Below, in pieces: positions 50,268-64,000 of a stretch of 64,000 nt of DNA. Under the pieces are notes generated by a model, which was not told the origin of the DNA, searched no databases, and saw only the letters and a list, made by a program, of their open reading frames with translations. Location: assembly GCF_032062105.1 (NCBI RefSeq), contig NW_026930103.1:620001-684000 (forward strand). The letters are read 5' to 3'. This DNA comes from Saccostrea cucullata. Taxonomy: Eukaryota. The number at the start of each line of letters is the position of its first letter. Within the stretch, counting starts at the first letter, position 1. The position numbers were made by a program, and so were the translations under genes.

Positions 50268-52155
50268 TTAACTGAGTAGTGGACAACAAAAATTAAATAT
50301 ACACCAAATATACATGGTATATCTGCAAACAAACTGAGATTTTTGTGAGCTGAAAGATACATTGGGAATGATATTAAGCCAGAAATCCATTTCCTGTTTT
50401 CTATACTTAATTCTAGAAGTAACGCCAGCACCACTTAACTGCACATAAGCCTGAGTTGATGAATCAAATGGAGGCCATTCGGGGAGGTTGTCATAGTTAG
50501 GGTCCCTGAAAAATTCAAAATTCTTGCATTCATTAAAAAAAATAATTTCAATAGTTACTTTTGACAAAAAAAAAATTCTATAAAGAAAAAGAAGGAGGAA
50601 AAAATACTAAACTCACTTACCCAGTTTTAGCAAAGTTTGACCAATATTTCCTCATAATGGCTGACAACTTCAAATCAGAATCCTTCGTCTTATATTTAGA
50701 ATTGGGATCCACAAAAGTTAAATTTTCTACGAAAAACAGAAACATTAAATCGGTGGTATGGGCAGAGCCTTTATACCAAGATGGTGGAGGAGATCCCATG
50801 AAAACTGGTAGCCCCTCCGTAAGAATAAACTGGTATCTTTTCGAGTTTGTCGTGTTTCCGGAAGAATGAGTGAATAGAGTTGACAAACTGGGCGCAATGA
50901 AAAATAAATCTGAGTACCAGTGTAATACGGAAAGACTTTGAAGAGTTATGTTGTCATTTCCCCCATACTCCTTGCACATCGCATTCATTACGCTAAGTTT
51001 GCCATTAAAATGATCAGTTACTGCAGTTGGAATGAGATGGTTGCAAAAGAAATCTCTAGGAATGCCTTCAGTCATGTTTAATCCGTAAGCAGTGAGAACA
51101 TCGAAAGTTTCTAGGTACAGCGACCCTTCCATGTCGCAGTTGCCAACCATTACATCCAAAGATTTGAAAAACATATATTCCTCTGATAATGGGCTTTTAA
51201 ACATTTTGTTGGGCGACATTTTGAAAAGTTCGCCGTCCACTACCGGTGTAAAGACATTGGTTATGAGTCTGTGAATGGAACTAAGCGAGCCTTTAGCAAA
51301 ATCGGATACTGCATGCTTTATAGAATCAACTGGTAAGTTCCGCATGCATTTTAGAACAAGTTCTGGGTTTGTGTTCATGTTACATCCGACTTTGTCAGTG
51401 ATTATTTCTGAGGATTGCCTCGTACTTCCAATGGCTAAAGGAGAATTAGCCGTCCCGCTTTGCAGAATGATTCGATGAAACAAACCTTTATTTTTCGGTA
51501 TAAGGGACAAGAGTCCCACGCTGAAACCTCCGGCTGATTCTCCGAACAAAGTTATTTTTTCCGGGTTTCCACCATAATCCTCGATATTATCTTTCACCCA
51601 CTGGATGGCTAACATCTGATCCCAGAGTCCATAATTCCCTTTGATAAAAACTTTATCTAAACTGTAGAAACCGAATATTCCAAGTCTGTAGTTTAACGTC
51701 ACAACAATGACGTCACCACTTAAAGCAAGCATACTTCCGTCATAGTAACTTCCATAACCAAAAATGTAGCCGCCTCCATGGATCCATATCATGACTGCTC
51801 TTTTGTGCGCATGCTTCAAAGGATAAGGGATGTAAATATTTAAGTTCAGACAATCTTCGCTCACTTTCCCGCCGAAGTTTGGATCATCCAAGAGTTGCAT
51901 ACAAACAGGTCCCAGAATTGTTCCATTTCGGGTTTCATTCCAGGCCCCGTACGGTTTTGGTTTTGCAAATCGCAGTTCATCAACTGGGGGCATTGCGTAA
52001 GGTATGTTTAGAAATTTCATAATCCCTGCTTGTGTTCCATTTAATACATGTTCTCCCATGATGTCGCCAAGTTTTGTATGGTGTATGATATTTCTTATGT
52101 ATTGTCCTAGAGAAAACGATAGGGAGTTAAGGATTATTACTCCACAAATGTTCAT
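50268..52155 (-). CDS. Type-B carboxylesterase / cholinesterase-family hydrolase; 2 coding exons
   Basis: Exons 52155-50621 and 50505-50268. Signal-peptide-like N-terminus, SEDCLNLNI, oxyanion hole WIHGGGY, nucleophile GESAG, Glu in GNCDMEG, His in GSAHTTDL, WSNFAKTGDPN, hydrophobic C-terminal tail. Confidence 0.92.
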
Positions 52156-52725
52156 TTTTGTGACCTGAAAGATAAAAGAAGATAAAATTCACGTTAAAAT
52201 ATGAAAATATAATTTTTTTTTTCATTTTGTTATGCTCTTGTATGAGAAAAAGTTTTTACATTTGAAGATTAAATCAAATTTTAAGTTAAGTATTTTAACA
52301 ATGAATTTCAAATTGTAATATTTTATGTTCTTTTATTCATACTGGTACAAATTTATATAGGTCTTTCTTGTATTTTCAAATCATTATTATTTCATTTTAT
52401 TCCATGTTTTGTTATTGAATTCTAGAACGTAAACTATAATAAACTATAGCTCTAGTAACTCTTTTTAAATTTCTCAAGAGATAGATTACATAAATTTATC
52501 ATCTAAAAAAAAACACAAACTCTTTGATGACGGTTTTTGATTTGATCTATGGAAAGAAGCTAAGCAACAATCTGAATAAAATCAAATCTTTGTTACGCTC
52601 CGAAATTCTGATAGTGAGCAAAGATGTGGTTTTAATCAAATTGAGCCAAACATAAAAAATATTTACATGTACAGTACCTACATATAAACTGCATCTCACA
52701 TGTTGTTTCCGCTTTGGTAACATAA

Positions 52726-53374
52726 TGTAACGATTTTGACTGTATATATATTTAAAATGTGTGTTTATCTATTGGTGGTTTTAATTTATTCCGACCGGAA
52801 GATTCATTCATCATTATTGTATGTTTAAACTACATTTAAACTTGTTGTACATCATTGTTTTACCTTATTTAAAAGTCATGCTGTCATTTCATATGTATTG
52901 TATACTTTCGTTTTCCATTACTTCCGGTCGCGGGAAAATATGTACAGGTTTTACCTAGAATTTGTCGTGTTTTCGCGTTTTATAACGTCACGTTGGGTCA
53001 TGCTATGTCACTTTGTTTTAACGTTTAGTTTTAGAAGTCAGTTGGGATTTTTAGATGATAGTGGACGGACGTAAATTTTTTTAAGGAGTTATTTTGAATA
53101 GTCAGCCCAGAATTGTGAATTTATTTTACTCAATTTGTAGTCGTTACCAGACTATTTGTGAGATGTCCAGGTAATTTAATTGAAATTTGTGATAATTTAT
53201 TTATTATTTATAAAATTTCGTATTAGAAATTTACTTTATCTGAAATTTAAGGAATCCGTGGAATTTAGCAAGTGACGTTGTGTGACCATATTTTGAAATA
53301 TAAATTGTTGTTAATTTATTGACTATCATTATTAAATTTTGGAATATCAGAATATAATTTTTGAAAACGTTACA
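52726..53374 (+). repeat. 5' LTR (649 bp)
   Basis: TGTAACG...CGTTACA inverted termini; first ~320 bp repeated from 59430. Confidence 0.92.
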
Positions 53375-53377
53375 TTT

Positions 53378-53395
53378 TGGTGGCAGCGGTGGGAT
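53378..53395 (+). other. Primer-binding site (tRNA-Leu-like)
   Basis: TGGTGGCAGCGGTGGGAT just after the LTR, complementary to a tRNA-Leu 3' end ...AUCCCACCGCUGCCACCA. Confidence 0.8.
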
Positions 53396-53468
53396 AGGAT
53401 AAAATTATTTGTGCAAGAATATTTGTTATTCTTGATTTTCAATTGCTAGATTTTCCCCGGTGAAAAAA

Positions 53469-56400
53469 ATGTCAGAATCCCGTGGTAGTAATGTGAACCC
53501 CAATGACAAGGGTGGGGGTGAATCAAATCCTGATATTGAAACTAAAGTGAATTCTATGCAGTCCCAGATTTGTGATATTTCTACGGTGTTACAGAAACTT
53601 ACAAGGACTTTAGATCGTTTGGTTGACAAAGACCATGACATGACTGACTGTAGAAGTGAGTACAGTGATTACAGAACAATTGACAGAGTGAGTGAGCCTG
53701 ATGGTCATAGACATACTCTGCCCAGTGACGCAAACCAGTCACAATTTTGTTCGTTTGATTCGCGAACACAGGTACACCCTCATAATATTTTAGATAGACC
53801 ATCGGATTTTAATCCGTTCAGACCAAATTATGAAAATCAAAACCAGACTCGACAGACTGTCAGAGCAAAACCCGACACTTATGACGGCAGATCTAGTTGG
53901 ACAGACTTTATCACTCAGTTCGAAATTGTATGTCGGTTAAATAACTGGTCCAGTGAGATTAAAGCCCTACAATTAGCAGCTTGTTTGAGAGGCTCAGCCA
54001 GAAGTGTTCTGACTGACCTTAGACCCCATCAGCTTGACGATTATTATGAGTTAAAATTTGTTCTCCAAACTCGCTTCGAACCAAAGAATCAAACTGAAAT
54101 GTACCGCGCAGAAATGAATAGTTGGTATCGGAAAAGAGACGAAAGCCTCCCTGAATTAGCACAAGATATAAAACTATTGGCCAGACTTGCTTATCCCACA
54201 GCCCCGTGTGAAGTTAGGGATACTTTGGCATATAAATGTTTCCGTGATGCCTTACATGACCAAGATATGGGCGATTTGTCAGAGCGCGTCCGAAAATATT
54301 GACGAAGCGTTAAACCTTGCGTTGAAATTTGAAGCCTTCAAAATGAGCAGAAATCGGAAGTACACAAATACTCCATATTTGCATCGAGCAGGAGATTAGT
54401 GACCACAGCTATCAAGACCTGTATGTATGAAAATTCCCAGACCAATGTCTCGCGATCAGACCTCTCAAATCACAGAAATGAGACAAAGAAATGTTTCTAT
54501 TGTGGGAAACTGGGTGATTTTAAAAATAAGTGTAGAAAACGCCAGTTTGATCTACAAGCGGGAAAATATTTCCTCCCAAAGAATGAACGACAGACCAAAC
54601 TTTGCGGAGAGGTCCGAAACCTCTGAGATTATTCATGCACGTGATTGCGCTCACGGTCCTTTAAACGACCAGAGGCTGAGCCTGTAGGTCAAGTCTCAGC
54701 CTGTGATACTAAAACCCAAACTTGTTGTGAACCGAATGACAGTGATAGACCTAAAGAGCAAATATTTGAAATCAAAGAGGCCCGCAGTGATAGTTTATTT
54801 GTTGTTGCAAAATTGAATGATAGAAAAATAAATTGTTTGACTGATACTGGAGCCTCAGTTTCTGTATTACATAAACGAATTTTTTATGAAATTTCGGGGG
54901 ATGTAAAACCGAGTTTGAATAGAAATTGTGGGAAATTGAAAGTGGCTGATGGTGAAATGATTACCCCGGCGGGAGCCGCCCAGATGACTTTTGTTATTGA
55001 TGGTAAACCCAATAGCTATAGGATGTTAGTAGCCGATATTGAGGTACCCGCGGTACTAGGATATGATTTCCTGAGGGACAATAATTGTGAAATGAAACTT
55101 GGTGAGGGTACGCTCAAGTTAAATGGTGAATCGATTAGTCGTAGACTTCACAGCCAAATTCAGACCCTATTCAAACTGTCGTTGACTGAAAATGTGGTGA
55201 TACCTCCGTTGAGCGAAAGGATAATTCCAACAAGAATTTTGGGTGATCAGCCATTTGGGAAAACGGCTGTTGTTACGGATATAAGTCCATCTGTGTCAAA
55301 GAAAGGAATTCTAGTCGGGAAAAGTGTTTTTGACCCTAATAAATCTGAAATACCTGTGCGTGTTGTCAATGTTTCTGATACTCCACAAACCATTTACAAA
55401 AATACGGTTACGTCAGAATGTGAGATAGTTCTTGAGAGTGATGTAGTATCATTTCAAAATCGATCTTGTGATAAAATGAATGCGCATACCTTGAATAACC
55501 TTGACCTTTTAAAGGTACCAGAAGACAATATGTCTGTTCCTGACCATATCAAAGTTGTTCTTGACTCATGTAAAAACAATTTAAGCGATGTAGAATTGAC
55601 GAAAGTGTGCAATCTTCTGCGTAACTATTTAAGTGTGTTTGCAACCTCTAAATCGTCTTTAGAGGTTGCAAACAGATTGTGTTTTACACAAAATAAATAC
55701 ATAAAACAAGCTCCTAGACGTATACCCATGAACCAAAAAGAGAAAGTTTCGACGGAATTGAAACGAATGTTGGATGTTGGTGTTATTAACCCTCTAAATC
55801 TCCTTGGGCTTCCCCTATAGTCATTGTGCGCAAATCAGACGGCTCCATATTCTGTGTCGATTACCGTAAAGTCAATGAAGTCACATTAAAAGACTCTTAT
55901 CCTCTGCCCAGAATCAATGACTCCCTAGACGTATTACGCGGATCTTCGTGGTTTTCTGTACTTGATTTACAGTCAGGTTTCTGGCAGGTAAAAATGGATC
56001 CGTCAGACCAATAGAAAACAGCTTTCGTAACAAATACTGGACTATACGAGTTTACCAAGATGCCCTTCGGTCTTTGTAATAGTTCCGCGACTTTTGAGCA
56101 ACTCATGGAGAGTGTCTTAGCTGGATTACAATGGGAGACTTGTCTTGTTTACATCGATGATATCATCATCTTTTCTGAATTCTTTGAGACCCATTTAGAT
56201 CGTCTTCGTGATGTTTCAAAGAAAGGTCAAATTTCTAGGACATATAGTGTCTGAACATGGTATCGAACCATGTCCCAGTAAAATTGAAGCAGTCAAGGAT
56301 TGGCCCATACCCTTTAATGTGAAAGACCTAAGAAGCATTCTGGGAACCATTTCATATTATCGCCGTTTTATCAAAGGATTTGCTGACATTGCGAAGGCTT

Positions 56401-58443
56401 TGCATAAACTGACCGAGAAAACAGTTCAGTTCAGATGTACCAAAGAATGTGATATTGCTTTTCAGCGTCTTAAATCTGCTTTAATGACAAAACCTATAAT
56501 GTCCTACCCAGATATGTTCAAGTCATTTATATTAGATACCGATGCTAGTGGCACAGCTATCGGTGCTGTTTCGTCCCAGGTTCATGAAGATGGAGAACAT
56601 GTTGTTGCATATTTTACAGGTGCTTGTCCAAGCATGAGCGACAGTATTGTATTACCAAGAAAGAGCTCTTAGATGTTGTCGAAGCAATTAAGCACTTTCA
56701 TTACTATTTATTTGGAACAAAATTTCTTGTTAGGACAGATCATGGTGCTCTTAGCTGGTTACGACGTTTTAAAAATCCTGAGGGTCAGCTAGCTAGGTGG
56801 ATCCAAGTTCTTGATACATACAACTTTGACTTTCGGCATCGTCCTGGAAAACAACACTCTAATGCTGATGGTTTGTCTCGTCGACCATGCATTTCTTGTA
56901 AATTTTGCGAGAGACAAGAAGACAAAATCACTCATTCCAGCGAAGCTGTTGTCCATATGTCAACCCAAACGTCCTGTCTGGACTACGAATCAGTTGAGGA
57001 TCAGCATCCAGTCAATGCGGTTTCTACAGTGGAACCCAGTTCAGTTTCAGGGGACGATAACCTTTCTTGGTTCCAGTCAAAGTCAAATGATGAACTCTCA
57101 CAAGCCCAGAGACAAGATCCTGTTCTGAAACATCTCTTCTCCCTGAAAGAAAAATACAAAGATGAACCTCCTAAGTGGCATGAAGTTTCTCACCTATCCC
57201 CAGCCCTCAAATCATATTGGTCACAGTGGAAAAGAATTGAACTTGTTAATGGTGTTCTATACAGAAGATGGGTGGATGTTGATAAAAATTCTGAAAGACT
57301 GCAACTGTTGGTACCAAAATGTTCGCAGAGTGAAATCTTAACTTTGTTACATGACTCTTTGCTTTCAGGTCACTTAGGCATAACCAAGACCATACACAAA
57401 ATTAGGGAAAGATTCTATGGGTCAGATTATATGTCCCACACCAGAAGATGGATTGAGAAGTGTACTGTGTGTCAAAAGCGTAAAACCCCTTCCAAACCAA
57501 TTAGAGGAGCTAGGGTCCAATACAATGTTGGTGCACCCTTAGAGAGAATAGCTCTTGATATAATGGGCCCGTTGCCACAGACCCAGAAAGGACACAAATA
57601 TATATTGGTTATTACAGATTATTTCACGAAATGGGCAGAAGCCTACCCTATGATAGATCAGGAAGCAAGTACCATTGCCGATTTCTTGATTGATTTCATT
57701 TGTCATTATGGTTTGCCTTTACAAATTCATTCCGACCAAGGGAGACAATTCCAGTCTAATCTTTTTAAGGAACACTGTAAAACCCTTGGGATTGATCAAA
57801 CAAGAACCTCTCCTTACCACCCTCAAAGTGATGGACTCGTAGAGAGAATTAACAGGACAATTATTGATATGCTTAGTAAAACCATTATCAAAAGTCAAAG
57901 AGATTGGAACAGAAAATTACCATTTGTGATGCTAGCATACAGGTCCTCTATTCAAGAGAGCACTAAGGAATCTCCCTGTTTTTTGATGTTCGGTCGTGAA
58001 CCCCTTTTACCGGTTGACTTATTGTATGGAAAATGCCAAGACCGCAAAATAGTGTCCGATTATGTACAAGACCTTGTAACAAAATTGTGGAATGTGCATG
58101 AATCTGCTCGTGAGAATATTTTGAAAGCTAGTGACAGACAAAAGAAATATTATGACCTAAAGACCAGTGACTAAACTTTTTCCCTAGGGGATGGTGTTTT
58201 TGTTATTTAAACCCAGTGAAAATTAAGGGGAAATCACCAAAACTTATGTGTAAATGGGAGGATCCCTACACTATAGTCAGAAAAGTGTCAGATTTGATCT
58301 ACGATATTAAGACTTCTTCAACTTCCAAGTCAAAAGTTGTACATGAGAACAGATTGAAACCATATTTTGGGAGAATGAGAATGTGGTTTGTACCACCCAG
58401 TGATAGAAACACCCGTGCCCAGGGGACCCAAAATGACCAATAA
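53469..58443 (+). pseudogene. gag-pol pseudogene (multiple frameshifts and stops)
   Basis: Gag (KPDTYDG, degenerate knuckle CFYCGKLGDFKNKC), protease LTDTGAS, RT MPFGL/YIDD, RNase H DTDAS/RTDH, integrase HHCC plus LDIMGP/HSDQG/GLVER and a C-terminal SH3-like tail. Confidence 0.92.
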
Positions 58444-58534
58444 TAAAATAGTCACTCAGACCAAAGATTGAAATATTTACATGTAAATTTGTGTTGGTGA
58501 ACTTTTGTATTTATTTATTTTTATTTATTATTAG

Positions 58535-59222
58535 TGTTAACAGATATCTTGGATACCTTGCTGCTCCCTCTGAGGAACCCCTGCATCAATGCGATGACTG
58601 TTGACGGAGGTTCTTTTCAAAACACAAACTGTCTCGTCACAGGAGGAATACCCATGGTGACAGAGTCTTCTGTTCCTTCTGCTACTATTGTGTACCAAAA
58701 ACCAGGAAGTACCTACTAACAAAACATGAAGAAACTGTGCACCGGAGTAAGCCTGTCATTGAAAACAAAAGACCAGCAGCCAAGACACACCTACCAGAAA
58801 CAGCTGTAAGACCGCCCTCTCCTGTGTACTCTGACGTTTCTTCTGCAGAGTCTCTGCATCAGGAGGACCCATTGGATCTGTTGGACTTCTTCTTGGATTT
58901 TTCTGGGATATCTTTTCCTGAATTGATGTCGTTTCAGGACCCCAAGGATCCCAAGACCTTTGTTCCTGAGTCTTTGGACACTCCTGCTTGCACTCCTGTG
59001 GAGCACGCATTCCCCGTTCCTGCAGTCACCTCCCTAGAAGAGCCTCTGGACCTCAGCTTACCATCTGCTGCCTGGAACAGTACCTGCTCTGACGGACCTG
59101 TAGGACTTTCCCCACCTGCCGATTTTTCCTTTTCTCCATCACATCCTTTCATCTACTTCCAGAATCAGTATTTACTTGCCAAGATCACAGTTAACGCAGC
59201 AACGCAGATGGGCTTTTCTTAA
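58535..59222 (+). pseudogene. Accessory ORF3 of the Gypsy element: two C2H2 zinc fingers plus acidic Pro/Ser-rich tail with PLDLS
   Basis: The frame of ORF 58737-59222 extends upstream as CDDC*RRFFSKHKLSRHRRNTH and CSFCYYCVPKTRKYLLTKHEETVH with a single TGA at 58602-58604; T-rich tract and AG acceptors at 58534/58543. Confidence 0.75.
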
Positions 59223-59429
59223 AGAGAATCTACATGACTTTGTATTTCACACTGAATGTATGTGTTATTGAACTGTTGTTGAACAGTTGGTACATCGGTT
59301 TCATGTTTACATAAATTGTTAATATTTGTAAATGTTATGAAGATTGTATTTATTGGTAAATTTATTAAATGTGTAAAATCATTTTTATCCCCAAGATTCG
59401 AGGACGAATCTTTTGTAGTGAGGGGGTGA

Positions 59430-59746
59430 TGTAACGATTTTGACTGTTTATATATTCAAAATGTGTGTTTATCTATTTGTGTTTTAATTTATTCCGACCG
59501 GAAGATTCATTCATCATTATGGAATGTTTAAACTACATTTAAACTTGTTGTACATCATTGTTTTACCTTATTTAAAAGTCATGCTGTCATTTCATATGTA
59601 TACTTTCGTTTTCCATTACTTCCGGTCGCGGGAAAATATGTACAGGTTTTACCTAGAATTTGTCATGTTTTCGCGTTTTATAACGTCACGTTGGGTCATG
59701 CTACGTGACTTTGTTTTAACATTTAGTTTTAGAAGTCAGTTGGGAT
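59430..59746 (+). repeat. 3' LTR, 5' portion only
   Basis: Preceded by polypurine tract agtgagggggtga; colinear with the 5' LTR until ...agtcagttgggat, then abruptly unrelated. Confidence 0.9.
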
Positions 59747-60181
59747 CACAGGCACCTGACGTTACTTATTTTTCTTTTAATAAAAAAAAAATATACACAT
59801 ACCGAATAATAAACAAGGTATCCATCGAAATCCGCCATCTTGGATTTTCGAAGTAGGTCATCACTTGTATTTTCGTCTGAAACTCCGTCAAATAAACCAT
59901 ATTCTTTCTTTGGCCAGTCTTTCGAGGTCTAAACTTACGGACACTGCAGCCAGAAAGGCGCATCACACTTGCAAATATTGAAAATCCCTCGTCAAACTCG
60001 ACCTACTGCTTCAACATTCCGAGAAATCGCCAAAGGGGGGCCGGAAGTTTACATCAATATGCTAATGGGAATTCCGTATTTGTCAGTTTTGTGGGAACAT
60101 CACTCGGCCTTTTCCGTCAAGTCGAGAAAAAACCTCGGATGTAATTACTTGGACTCGGTCACGTGTCACGTGACAATTAAA

Positions 60182-63100
60182 ATGGCGGCGCCCATATGCA
60201 CGTTTTGTGGCCGAATTCAAAGAAATCTTCAGAGGGTAACCGGCACAAAACGTGCATACGAAAAAGATATTGAGAAAATTTTAACTGACGCTTTATGTCT
60301 CCAAATCAGTTTCACATTTGCGTGTAAGATATGTGTCCCATGCCTTACGTTATGTGAAAAATTCTGTGAGTTTAAAAGAAAGGTCAAAGGCAATACAGAG
60401 TTGTTAAACAGTTTGGCAATTTCACCGGCTCTTATGTCTCCTTCAACACCTAAGGGACCTACTCCAAAACGTCGTCGGATGAACACGCCCTTAAAGGTAA
60501 ATTATTTTTATTATGTCATGTGCTAGATTAAAGGCAAATATGCACTGATATGATACTTTATAGTACTAATGGAAAAACAGAACATACTAGTATGGGTATG
60601 GTCAGAGTATATCAAACAAATCATTTTTTATTGTTGGCTATTAACCATGTTAACTTCATTATTTTATGACAGAGTATAGCTGAGGTCAAGCCTACTGAAA
60701 AAAAAATTTCATCAAGGAGAAGTATTGACTTTGCTCATGATCATGGCTATAGCCTTCAAACTGAGGGTACGAATTGAAATTTCCATTATTTGAATATATT
60801 TTCTTATTTGAATTTTTATTTTAATTTTTTCAACTGAATGAATTCTTTAGTAGAATCTGTTGGAGAGACATTAGCTAAGAAAATCCACAGCAATTCAACT
60901 CCAAGAAAATCTGTTGCTGAGAAAATACACAGCAATTTAACTCCAAGGAAATCTGTTGCTGAGTGGCTAAAGGAAACTTGTAATCCTGGCTATAGCCTTC
61001 AAAATGAGGGTATGAAATGAAATTTCCATTATAATGCCCCTCTTTGAAGAAGGGAGGGCATATTGCTTTGCTGCTGTCTGTCGGTAGGTCTGTCTGAGGG
61101 TTGACCAAGTTTCCGTTCATTTTCTTTGCAGGGGTTGCACATACTGCAATGAAATTTTGAAATTTGGTATACAGATTTATCAGATGAATATCTAGGTCAA
61201 GCTGGGTACGATTGTGCCATTTTTGACAGAGTTATGCCCTTTTGGACTTAGAAAAATTCCAATTAGGGGGAGGGGACATAAGTGTTTTACAAACATCTCT
61301 TGTTTGAAATGTATTTTGTTAAAAGGTTTCTGATTACAACTCTCTCAAAGTATCATGATACAATATATTTATATTTTTTCAACTGAATGCATTCTTTATT
61401 AGAATCTGTTGGAGAGACACTAGCTAAGAAAATCCACAGCAATTCAACTCCAAGGAAATCTGTTGCTGAGAAAATACACGGCAATTTAACTCCAAGGAAA
61501 TCTGTTGCTGAGTGGCTAAAGGAAACATTATCCAAAGGTACGCTTTTTTCAAAGTAAAAAATAAAAATGAAAAAAATTGCAAACATGACAGTATGAGATA
61601 TCTTAGAAGGAAAAAAAAGAGAACTATGTTATTTATTAAAGTATATGTAAATATTTGCAGTTGATGAATCAAATGAAGAGCAAAAGGTAAAGAAAGAAAT
61701 AATTATACACCATTTGGCTGCCCTTCAGAAATTAGCCTTCAATGGCGCTAGTGTACTGTTCAAGAAATCTCCATCAGTGCTATGTGATTCAACATTATCT
61801 GAAATTGTTGATGAAATGAAGAACCATCTCCCATTTCTGTACAGTCTTCTGAATGTTATGATTGGAGTAAGCGGGTCAAAGACTGGTACCATAGCCTTGA
61901 TTTATGCCATGATATTACATAGCAGGAATAAGCAGGCTTCAAGAATGCAGAGGATCATGTCAACTTTTCTAATGAGTTGTAATGCCAGCAACATGGTAAT
62001 CAACCAATACTTGTATATTTAAGAATCCTTTATATTTACCTTTGATTTACCTTTAAGGGCATGATAAAGAATTAATTTCATGTACATGTATTTAGAATGA
62101 TCTGCCCTTAGATCTAAACTAAAATAAATTTAAATAATCTACTGTGTGGACTACCTAGTTTATGATCAATTCAAGCATTTAACATTTTACTAAGCCAAGA
62201 CAACTTAACTGAACATTTTTTTTTGCATTTTTTTCTAAGTACATGTATTCTGATCTTTATTTAGTTAATGACAAGACTAAACAAGTTTCATCTCACCCTG
62301 AGTGGAGACAGTAAGGTAAACCTTATCAAGGACTATGCTAATTATAATGAACACTTAGTGATTAAGGCAGTTGCAGCTGGAGAAGATGGAAAATTAAATG
62401 GTGACAACCTTGATATTTTTGTTACAACCAATGATATCAGAATGACAAACCACAACAAAGATTACCACTTCTTTGCCACTGATTGGACACCATACAGGGT
62501 CAAGCAACAAGATTTCAATGAACATGCTGGAGTGCAAGAGGCCATTGACCGTACCATTGATTTGGAACCCACAACTGAAAATTTTTTGGTGTCAGACAAT
62601 GAAAATAAGAAATTTGTTCATTATCTAGCACAGCTTCTTGGTAGAGAAATGTCTAAAACCTGTACAAACTTTAAGTGGCTGGAATCTGTAGTTCCCAAAC
62701 ACATTGAGCATTCTTTGTCAGATATTATGTCACGAAAAACTGTTTCTTACCGATTACCTATTCTCCTTAAGAATGAAGCAAAGTACGATGACTGTATTCA
62801 GATAATGGAATCATATGTTACAATGGTAACAGACTGGTACAACAAAGCCGGCAGAGGTTTGGCCATCAGTTGAAGACTGTTGAAATGTTGCCAGTTTCTT
62901 GGAGTTTTGTTTCATGTTAGTTTGAATTGAATATATTTTATTTCATTTTGTTTTTGCTCTAGTTTAATTTCAGTATTCAGACATCATTCTAGACTTTTCT
63001 GCAAGAATCTTCGCAGACTTTTTCCCTTCATATCTAACATTGTTAAAATACACCAAAAGCATAAGCATAAAAATATCTTTTTTAGCAATTCTGAACAAGA

Positions 63101-63629
63101 TTCAACCTTTGTAAATTAAAGTGAGCAAATACAATGTTGATTTTTTTGCTTGTGTTTTTGTTATTGAAATTATGTATTTTGAAATGGAATGAGTAATGAA
63201 ATTAATATTTATTAGAACTATTAATGGACTATATTAATTCATTTCATTCACATAAGGGGGGGGGGGGGTGTAGATTTAACTATTTACTAAAGATAAAGAA
63301 ACTTTGGATACATGAAAGCAGAAATGTGTTTAACATGTCTCTGGTGAAATCATTAATAAGATTTAGTTTACAAGTACATGCAAAAAAAAATATTCAAGGT
63401 CATCATTAGAATTAATAAGAATTTATTCATGTAATATGACCTTCGTATGTATTTAACAGGTGCTGAATTGACCAATTTGAAAGTGCCAGTAGGTGGAGAC
63501 CAACTTACCCGTGTTCGTTTGCAAGGTGCTAAGTCTCTTCGTGCTGGTTGTCATACTGCTCGTGAAAGACTGGACATTCTATTCCCAGTGGTTGTGGAAC
63601 TGTTCCATACAGTTATGGATTTTTTGGAG
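60182..63629 (+). CDS. Multi-exon DUF6589-like putative transposase with N-terminal C2C2 Zn domain (3' incomplete)
   Basis: Approximate exons 60182-60496, 60673-60766, 60854-61009, 61403-61537, 61661-61995, 62265-62856, 63460-63629. Motifs CTFC...CVPC, RLNKFHLTLS, GDNLD, PKHIEH, NEAKYDD, GGDQLTRVR, ELFH. Confidence 0.7.
61031..61304 (-). mobile_element. Short HINE-like element in an intron of the DUF6589 gene
   Basis: atgcccctctttgaagaagggagggcat hairpin, ctgt/ggtc microsatellite, ends ggggacataagtgttttacaaacatctcttgttt like 14372-14941. Confidence 0.65.
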
Positions 63630-64000
63630 GTAAAAAATAAATGCAAAGATAAGGACAGGCCTATGGTTGATACACCCATGCCCTAGGTGGTTCATTTTTA
63701 AGCTGATATACATTTGGCTATTCTTTTAACTACAGTTTCGTAAAAGTGCACATGCATATACATGTATGTTTAGTAATAATTGAGGCTTTTTATACATGAT
63801 CCTTAAACTTAATTAATAATTTGTCCAAAATTAGGTCCACAGTAATCGCTTTATTTTTGTCAGACAATATCTTCCATAATATTTTTTACCTAAAAGTTTC
63901 TTGGGGATTGAGGGACACATCTATACATATACATGTACTAGTAAAATTTATCTTATTTGCTTTATGAAATTTTAAAAAGCCTTGGTAAAATACTTTGTTT

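Follow-up and report, generated by a model that had tools for sequence, protein, structure and literature searches.

A zinc-finger ORF3 in an oyster Ty3/gypsy family, probably expressed by splicing from a protein-coding exon in the long terminal repeat

A 64,000-nucleotide stretch of the oyster Saccostrea cucullata genome (NCBI RefSeq assembly GCF_032062105.1, contig NW_026930103.1, positions 620,001 to 684,000 of the forward strand; hereafter the window) contains a decayed Ty3/gypsy long terminal repeat (LTR) retrotransposon with a third open reading frame (ORF3) that encodes two C2H2-type zinc fingers. With a probability of about 0.88, the family of this element expresses ORF3 by splicing from a coding exon in the LTR to an acceptor at the start of ORF3. 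The spliced message would join an 8-base LTR coding exon (donor at 53171) to the acceptor AG at 58533-58534, skipping the primer-binding site (PBS), gag and pol. Unspliced RNA would act both as the template and as the message for gag-pol, and the spliced RNA, having no primer site, would be a message only. The splice signals, reading phases, conservation, selection and matches to RefSeq gene models are observed; splicing in vivo, the start site and the function of the protein are inferred. A preliminary description of the window had proposed this subgenomic splice; comparative data and gene models support it at the level of the family, but junction reads were not recovered and the window copy itself is broken.

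The window copy carries a premature in-frame TGA (58602-58604) within finger 1, and frameshifts and stops interrupt both its gag and its pol. It could therefore not make a full ORF3 protein, and the question concerns the family, not the single copy. In two younger copies (L052 and L053), with LTRs more than 99% identical, gag and pol form long open frames; their ORF3 is open over 227 codons, and no Met occurs in it until past the fingers. The features of the window copy are as follows.

52726..53374, + strand: 5' LTR (TG...CA), 649 nt, from LTR comparison and the ATAA duplication
52923..52990, + strand: TTCCGG and CRE-like ACGTCA motifs, in the same order in distant splice-type LTRs (sequence)
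53163..53170, + strand: coding part of the predicted first exon, ATG (53163-53165) plus 5 nt, phase 2 (sequence)
53171..53176, + strand: predicted splice donor GTAATT after the exon end AG at 53169-53170, 8/9 U1 match (U1 scan)
53331..53336 (approximate), + strand: ATTAAA, a candidate poly(A) signal in the LTR, downstream of the donor (motif only)
53378..53395, + strand: PBS, inside the predicted intron (sequence)
53469..54684, + strand: gag, broken by a frameshift and stops (ORFs and comparison)
54654..58440, + strand: pol (protease, reverse transcriptase (RT), RNase H, integrase), several frame-shifted pieces with stops (Pfam, tblastn)
58502..58534, + strand: T-rich tract and predicted acceptor 1 (AG at 58533-58534), favoured (sequence, copies, RefSeq model)
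58542..58543, + strand: alternative in-phase acceptor 2 (sequence)
58535..59222, + strand: ORF3 main exon (sequence, Pfam, AlphaFold)
~58590-58655 and ~58671-58742, + strand: the two C2H2-type fingers of ORF3 (sequence and model)
59415..59429, + strand: purine-rich tract preceding the 3' LTR (sequence)
59430..59746, + strand: first part of the 3' LTR, split by a later insertion (match to the 5' LTR)

Donors were scored as matches out of 9 to what we take to be the U1 consensus. The predicted donor is the only GT with at least 7/9 in 52726-53470, none reaches 8/9 in 53471-58530, and the same donor is likewise the unique best between LTR start and acceptor in L052 and L053. The ATG exon and its phase-2 donor lie exactly where the preliminary description placed them, and 10 of 2000 dinucleotide shuffles of the LTR 3' half produced a donor scoring 8/9 or better that followed an open phase-2 start. 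Its statements about ORF3 were also borne out: no in-frame ATG occurs between the upstream stop at 58449 and finger 1, and the AGs at 58533-58534 and 58542-58543 are both phase-compatible with ORF3. The LTR region with TTCCGG and ACGTCA, which we presume to be ETS and CRE motifs, is likely the promoter, judging from these motifs. A three-exon model, with a second donor at 53071 and an acceptor at 53140, was rejected for the window family because bases +3 to +6 of the 53071 donor vary freely. A CGCTACCAG-like word (53141-53150 in the window LTR, and in full-length LTRs such as that of L053) is repeated several times in the LTR 3' half, and AG-TCG at its first copy is shared with L099 and L101.

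Some public gene models start as a predicted join would. XP_061170136.1 from S. echinata (RefSeq, named PLAGL2-like) is 65% identical to ORF3 and starts MSSVHRYLG, corresponding to the two exon codons of the window, the codon spanning acceptor 1 and what is encoded between the first AG and the second. XP_062606823.1 begins MADPMQTRW-IQRFKC (full start MADPMQTRWIQRFKC); at all three loci checked, its first 9 residues are found only in LTRs, before GTAATT, and its next 12 about 6 kb downstream, right after CAG. We had read this join from the DNA before the protein was seen. Since XP_062606823.1 carries the same species label as the window, it is an independent annotation and not an independent genome; ORF3s of this genome share 98-99% identity with proteins that RefSeq lists under Saccostrea cucullata. 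In parallel, XP_078324263.1 of C. virginica begins MDQPKGIPQTRW-VQRFKC, and an unspliced ENA member of its cluster has different residues before VQRFKC. The Logan/ENA proteins examined start at internal or unspliced positions, so none of them shows the join.

Searches with ORF3 and integrase recovered many further gypsy families with a finger pair after the integrase. In one set CAG abuts the ORF3 ATG, and the T-rich tracts before it differ (L099, L123, L124/125, L127, L130, L131, L133 and L137; L122 and L126 are degenerate there), and the LTRs of this set, where recovered, share GTAAGT about 130 nt past the CRE-like motif (L099/L121, L139, L140 and L143). L100/L101 have the acceptor TAG/G (slashes mark predicted splice points) and AT/GTAAGT in the LTRs of both subfamilies, an arrangement matched in 48 of 2000 shuffles; splicing would here create the ATG, as it is reported to do for env in Drosophila gypsy (PMC2585583). 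In five families the acceptor is in phase 0 and the first CxxC is not preceded by an ATG. All five fit a rule, revised as told below, in which a TATA-like box is followed by an open ATG and G/GTAATT in phase 0, giving the mini-exon peptides MADPMQTRW, METQNRW, MTHTTTEEFRW, MSEAQLRRAREDL and MSEEQLRRARGDL; shuffle controls for three of the five gave 19, 13 and 11 matches per 1000. Between MSEAQLRRAREDL and MSEEQLRRARGDL, 9 of 13 codons differ, 7 of them synonymously and 2 non-synonymously, which argues for coding constraint inside an LTR.

A second group of loci has an ORF3 with its own ATG (L103-L106, L108-L118, L132, L134 and L135). These form one integrase clade (15 rows, support 100/100) with short LTRs; for the splice-type families no single clade is resolved. 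The tree is midpoint-rooted and covers the elements of this genome after removal of 10 redundant rows and 3 with no usable integrase, with 16 of 25 related integrase loci listed. In the own-ATG group, TATA/CCAAT/GC-like motifs at the integrase end precede the ATG by 45-90 nt, with CCAAT/GC/CRE-like motifs at 12 of 14 loci and a TATA pattern at 7 of 14. No donor of at least 7/9 was present in the five LTRs of this clade checked, two of which contain the GTAATT hexamer. The motifs suggest a candidate internal promoter for ORF3 in this clade, paralleling foamy viruses, which have an internal promoter for their regulator Tas. No ORF3 was seen within 1.5 kb past the integrase in L156, L157 and L176, and L153 stops at a contig edge.

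The ORF3 protein is predicted to consist of two finger folds (AlphaFold pLDDT 89-96) and a disordered, Pro/Ser-rich and acidic tail with a PLDLS motif at 59043-59057; sister families carry a BTB domain instead. The only Pfam matches are of zf-C2H2 type, below cut-off; the second finger is atypically spaced, and all eight ligand positions vary little or not at all across 11 aligned homologues from oysters, scallops and other sources. In the four between-subfamily pairs, the fingers have a ratio of non-synonymous to synonymous differences (pN/pS) of 0.09-0.11 and the tail one of 0.30-0.40; within-subfamily pairs, with few changes, give 0.37-0.68. The fingers are under purifying selection. HMMER searches over representatives returned mostly generic multi-finger proteins, and a metagenome pattern scan gave 194 matches and no relative.

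We tentatively favour, at somewhat under even odds, a role for ORF3 as the element's own nuclear transcriptional regulator. The protein would act in the nucleus, where it would bind either the LTR of its own element or chromatin of the host and bring in a host co-factor. The alternative that ORF3 binds RNA or a host silencing protein instead of DNA, as a Rev- or CERV-like export factor or as a BTB-Cullin3 counter-defence adaptor, is possible, though we would not bet on it. Strong splice sites create a requirement for export of unspliced RNA, a problem that CERV of Cer1 reportedly solves (PMC10309623). ORF3 has just two fingers, one atypically spaced, and BTB_2 (KCTD type) is above the Pfam cut-off in all four ORF3s scanned that combine the finger pair with a BTB domain (L179, L181, L182 and L183). 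Against an RNA-binding or adaptor role stand the PLDLS motif, which we take to be of CtBP type and which is present in the window family and twice in P0069, and the closest Atlas features, which are C2H2 transcription factors, a weak and generic lead. Since many related elements share the layout, they likely encode a regulator of their own. RefSeq fragments of the BTB-bearing ORF3s are named KCTD2/5-like. A TQT-like motif, presumably resembling that of LC8 dynein light chain partners, recurs at ORF3 C-termini (P0167, P0197, P0032, P0060, L099 and L186), and an unnamed C-terminal domain starting DPRxF occurs in L099, L186, P0023, P0032, P0060 and P0069.

Comparison across family copies, a check that the preliminary description had proposed, found both splice signals kept in most. 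Among the best 30 of 47 LTR matches we examined 29 loci and aligned 28, several being paired LTRs of one element; the ATG is kept in 25 and the donor GT in 27. For the acceptor, 11 of 12 loci could be mapped (L010-L012 are near-identical to one another), and we favour 58533-58534 because its AG is kept in 10 of 11 copies versus 9 of 11 for the AG at 58542-58543. No processed, intron-less genomic copy was seen: no match ended at the donor among at least 47, and none started at an acceptor among at least 20.

A real splice that uses acceptor 2, or a donor within gag as in CERV, is improbable in our estimate. Acceptor 2 is in phase and has YAG in 9 of 11 copies, but what lies between the first AG and the second is part of the S. 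echinata model, and L009 lost the second AG and retained the first. CERV is reported to be spliced from exons in gag frames (PMC10309623), but in the oyster no donor of at least 8/9 lies in gag-pol in any of the three copies scanned, and the P0190 N-terminus given by RefSeq maps to the LTR.

Several observations weigh against splicing from the LTR exon to ORF3. The 10-nt bins over 53140-53369 are all 70-98% identical to the window, and because the LTR around it is similarly conserved, conservation of the donor within the family is weak evidence. Six of nine oyster RefSeq ORF3 models have no LTR exon, with internal-Met starts in P0182, P0183, P0185, P0196 and P0211 and an unspliced upstream ATG in P0210, and the first exons of the S. 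echinata and C. virginica models were not placed in any LTR. RefSeq gene models usually rest on RNA alignments; the evidence behind these ORF3 models was not visible. Our prediction for the five phase-0 families, made beforehand, was that an open phase-0 ATG would precede whichever donor in each LTR matched U1 best. In this strict form it did not hold: the stronger donor of L182/L190 and of L181 lacks an ATG, the L179/L180 LTRs have no site of at least 7/9, and only L183 fitted, in a tie. The rule that fits all five, the first G/GTAATT (the hexamer of the window) after a TATA-like box, was set after this failure.

The junction between LTR and ORF3 that the preliminary description expected in RNA was not recovered, at a depth too low to decide. 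We examined 8 of 24 listed runs, five as contigs and three as raw reads (X10-X12, 44-47% of reads used), and called a joint from at least 3 reads. No joint from 53170 to 58535 or 58544 appeared in any of the eight. In the raw-read runs depth at the ORF3 start ranged from 0 to about 2.6, and LTR contigs cross the donor unspliced in all five contig runs. The absence of junction reads is uninformative because depth did not exceed about 2.6, 3 reads were needed and reads were cut at the skipped T-rich repeat (58502-58540); the test is underpowered and neither confirms nor refutes the splice. Unspliced LTR contigs would also be expected from gag RNA, 3' LTR RNA or DNA. Cover of ORF3 with little cover of pol in X10 and X12 was dropped as evidence, since oligo-dT bias or pol-deleted copies (L058, L062) explain it; X11 shows the reverse. 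Joints at 57141-58556 (X1) and 54567-59235 (X6) have no GT-AG ends and were set aside. In X3, X7 and X8, ORF3-like contigs carry, at 58557, from 55 to at least 255 upstream letters unlike the window element, and a search of G000 did not find their source locus.

It is very unlikely that the LTR donor is kept solely for U1 binding that suppresses a poly(A) site in the 5' LTR, with ORF3 expressed from an internal promoter or Met. Foamy viruses offer a precedent: their major donor lies in the LTR upstream of the poly(A) signal, and U1 is reported to suppress polyadenylation there (PMC3694450). ATTAAA or AATAAA follows the donor inside the LTR in 7 of 7 splice-type LTRs checked, a likeness in motif order, the start and poly(A) sites being predicted; the own-ATG clade, with promoter-like motifs at 12 of 14 loci, and the lack of junction reads also fit. 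This account leaves unexplained the phase-matched ATG exons, the synonymous divergence between mini-exons, the YAG at ORF3 starts in many families and the RefSeq joins, and the first in-frame Met of ORF3 comes after the fingers, its most constrained part. All 7 LTRs checked have the foamy order of motifs, so that U1 suppression may be a second task of the donor besides splicing. That the splice match is due to chance and ORF3 is an unexpressed captured host fragment hardly deserves credence: the window copy is broken and RNA cover is low, but this idea is largely refuted already by shuffle controls, phase-0 families and purifying selection. Open ORF3s in the young copies L004 and L005 and the presence of ORF3 across many families, in scallops and oysters, also speak against it.

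The splicing strategy itself is known, to the point of being textbook, from errantivirus env and the foamy LTR donor. In Drosophila errantiviruses, env splicing is reported to start at a short exon, coding for a peptide, upstream of gag (ZAM/Beagle), at an AU dinucleotide (springer/gypsy) or inside gag (PMC12992720, PMC2585583). Like these, the oyster families have a third ORF after the integrase with no start of its own, predicted to be completed by a 5' mini-exon in some and by a split AT/G in others. They differ in that the oyster cargo is C2H2, with or without BTB, and not Env-F, and in that the LTR itself holds the predicted coding exon and its donor, before the PBS is reached, whereas the gypsy 5' site is described as lying in the gag region. 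ORF3, with its two fingers, disordered tail and sole Pfam type, shows no F-type envelope, and because Env-F is lacking the window element is not an errantivirus. The parallel with gypsy and retroviral env drawn in the preliminary description holds for the predicted splice layout that skips PBS, gag and pol, but not for the cargo; with its predicted donor in the LTR, so that the PBS would be skipped, the element resembles foamy viruses more than Drosophila gypsy. The foamy likeness is one of layout and implies no sequence relationship, and the oyster LTR exon, unlike the foamy one, is protein-coding.

To our knowledge, regulatory genes are rarely described in LTR retrotransposons outside retroviruses, CERV being one case. 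CERV is reported to be a spliced, non-env nuclear protein needed for export of Cer1 genomic RNA (PMC10309623). The oyster protein would likewise be a non-envelope nuclear accessory protein from a spliced mRNA, but CERV has five exons that share gag frames and no C2H2 pair, whereas a single LTR-to-ORF3 join is predicted in the oyster. Mollusc Gypsy clades (C-clade, MolGy; PMC6238403) belong to the same superfamily and host group, and the main text of that paper has 0 occurrences of 'zinc', 'ORF' and 'splic'. MDG1 sORFs were dropped as a precedent because they are reported not to be spliced (bioRxiv 2025.03.14.642691). Literature searches aimed at this cargo or its host group, outside Repbase, subscription journals and supplements and including passages of PMC6238403, PMC13524379 and bioRxiv 2025.03.14.642691, brought up no account of splicing from an LTR exon to a C2H2 ORF3.

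The window element has the structure of a Ty3/gypsy element, with TG...CA LTRs, a PBS (which we take to be of tRNA-Leu type), a purine tract and the 4-nt target duplication ATAA on both flanks. Pfam matches occur in gypsy order (Asp_protease, below cut-off; RT_RNaseH; Integrase_H2C2; rve), and the RT stretch was positioned by tblastn against the L053 pol. Full-length family LTRs measure about 843 nt, and the window 5' LTR is short by about 170-190 nt near its 3' end. The remainder of the 3' LTR lies beyond the window (G000:C12240:689351-689474) and ends with the ATAA duplication; the two 3' LTR parts match the 5' LTR at 308/317 and 120/124 positions (about 97%), and the donor-bearing part was not found in the stretch examined around the insertion. 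This insertion (59747-64000 and beyond) contains introns, starts CACAG, has a weak zf-AD match at 59933-60523 and is probably a DNA transposon. On the other side, a 523-aa frame at 50268-52188 (- strand), carboxylesterase-like by eye, is apparently a nearly intronless host gene adjoining the element.

Some family members have lost pol. L058 and L062 have internal deletions that join the start of gag (~53499) to the end of the integrase (~57997) at a short shared sequence and keep ORF3; they are non-autonomous ORF3 carriers. L054 (G000:C13010:180700-186200) is pol-less, with LTRs 98% identical and a 732-aa ORF in which gag reads on, without a frame break, into about 350 residues that do not resemble the window element; by eye these look like a coiled coil, and they are likely captured host sequence. 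The X6 joint named above, 54567-59235, fits L054.

We see an even chance that these families belong to a large, old bivalve gypsy radiation of 'complex' retrotransposons, with a zinc-finger regulator in the env slot. Effector modules (the PLDLS tail, the BTB domain and the unnamed C-terminal domain) would have been swapped in such a radiation, and expression would take two routes, a protein-coding LTR exon or an internal TATA-type promoter, paralleling Tat, Rev and Tas of complex retroviruses. What the oyster families present is a finger protein under purifying selection in many families together with a constrained short coding exon in the LTR itself. The exact junctions are open to testing in oyster RNA, and the protein is a candidate, amenable to study, for a role in self-regulation or counter-defence. 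Oyster genes that RefSeq calls 'PLAGL2-like' and 'KCTD-like' are flagged as likely transposon ORF3s and, if the radiation is real, such elements could seed host zinc-finger and zinc-finger-BTB genes, several already being annotated as ordinary oyster genes.

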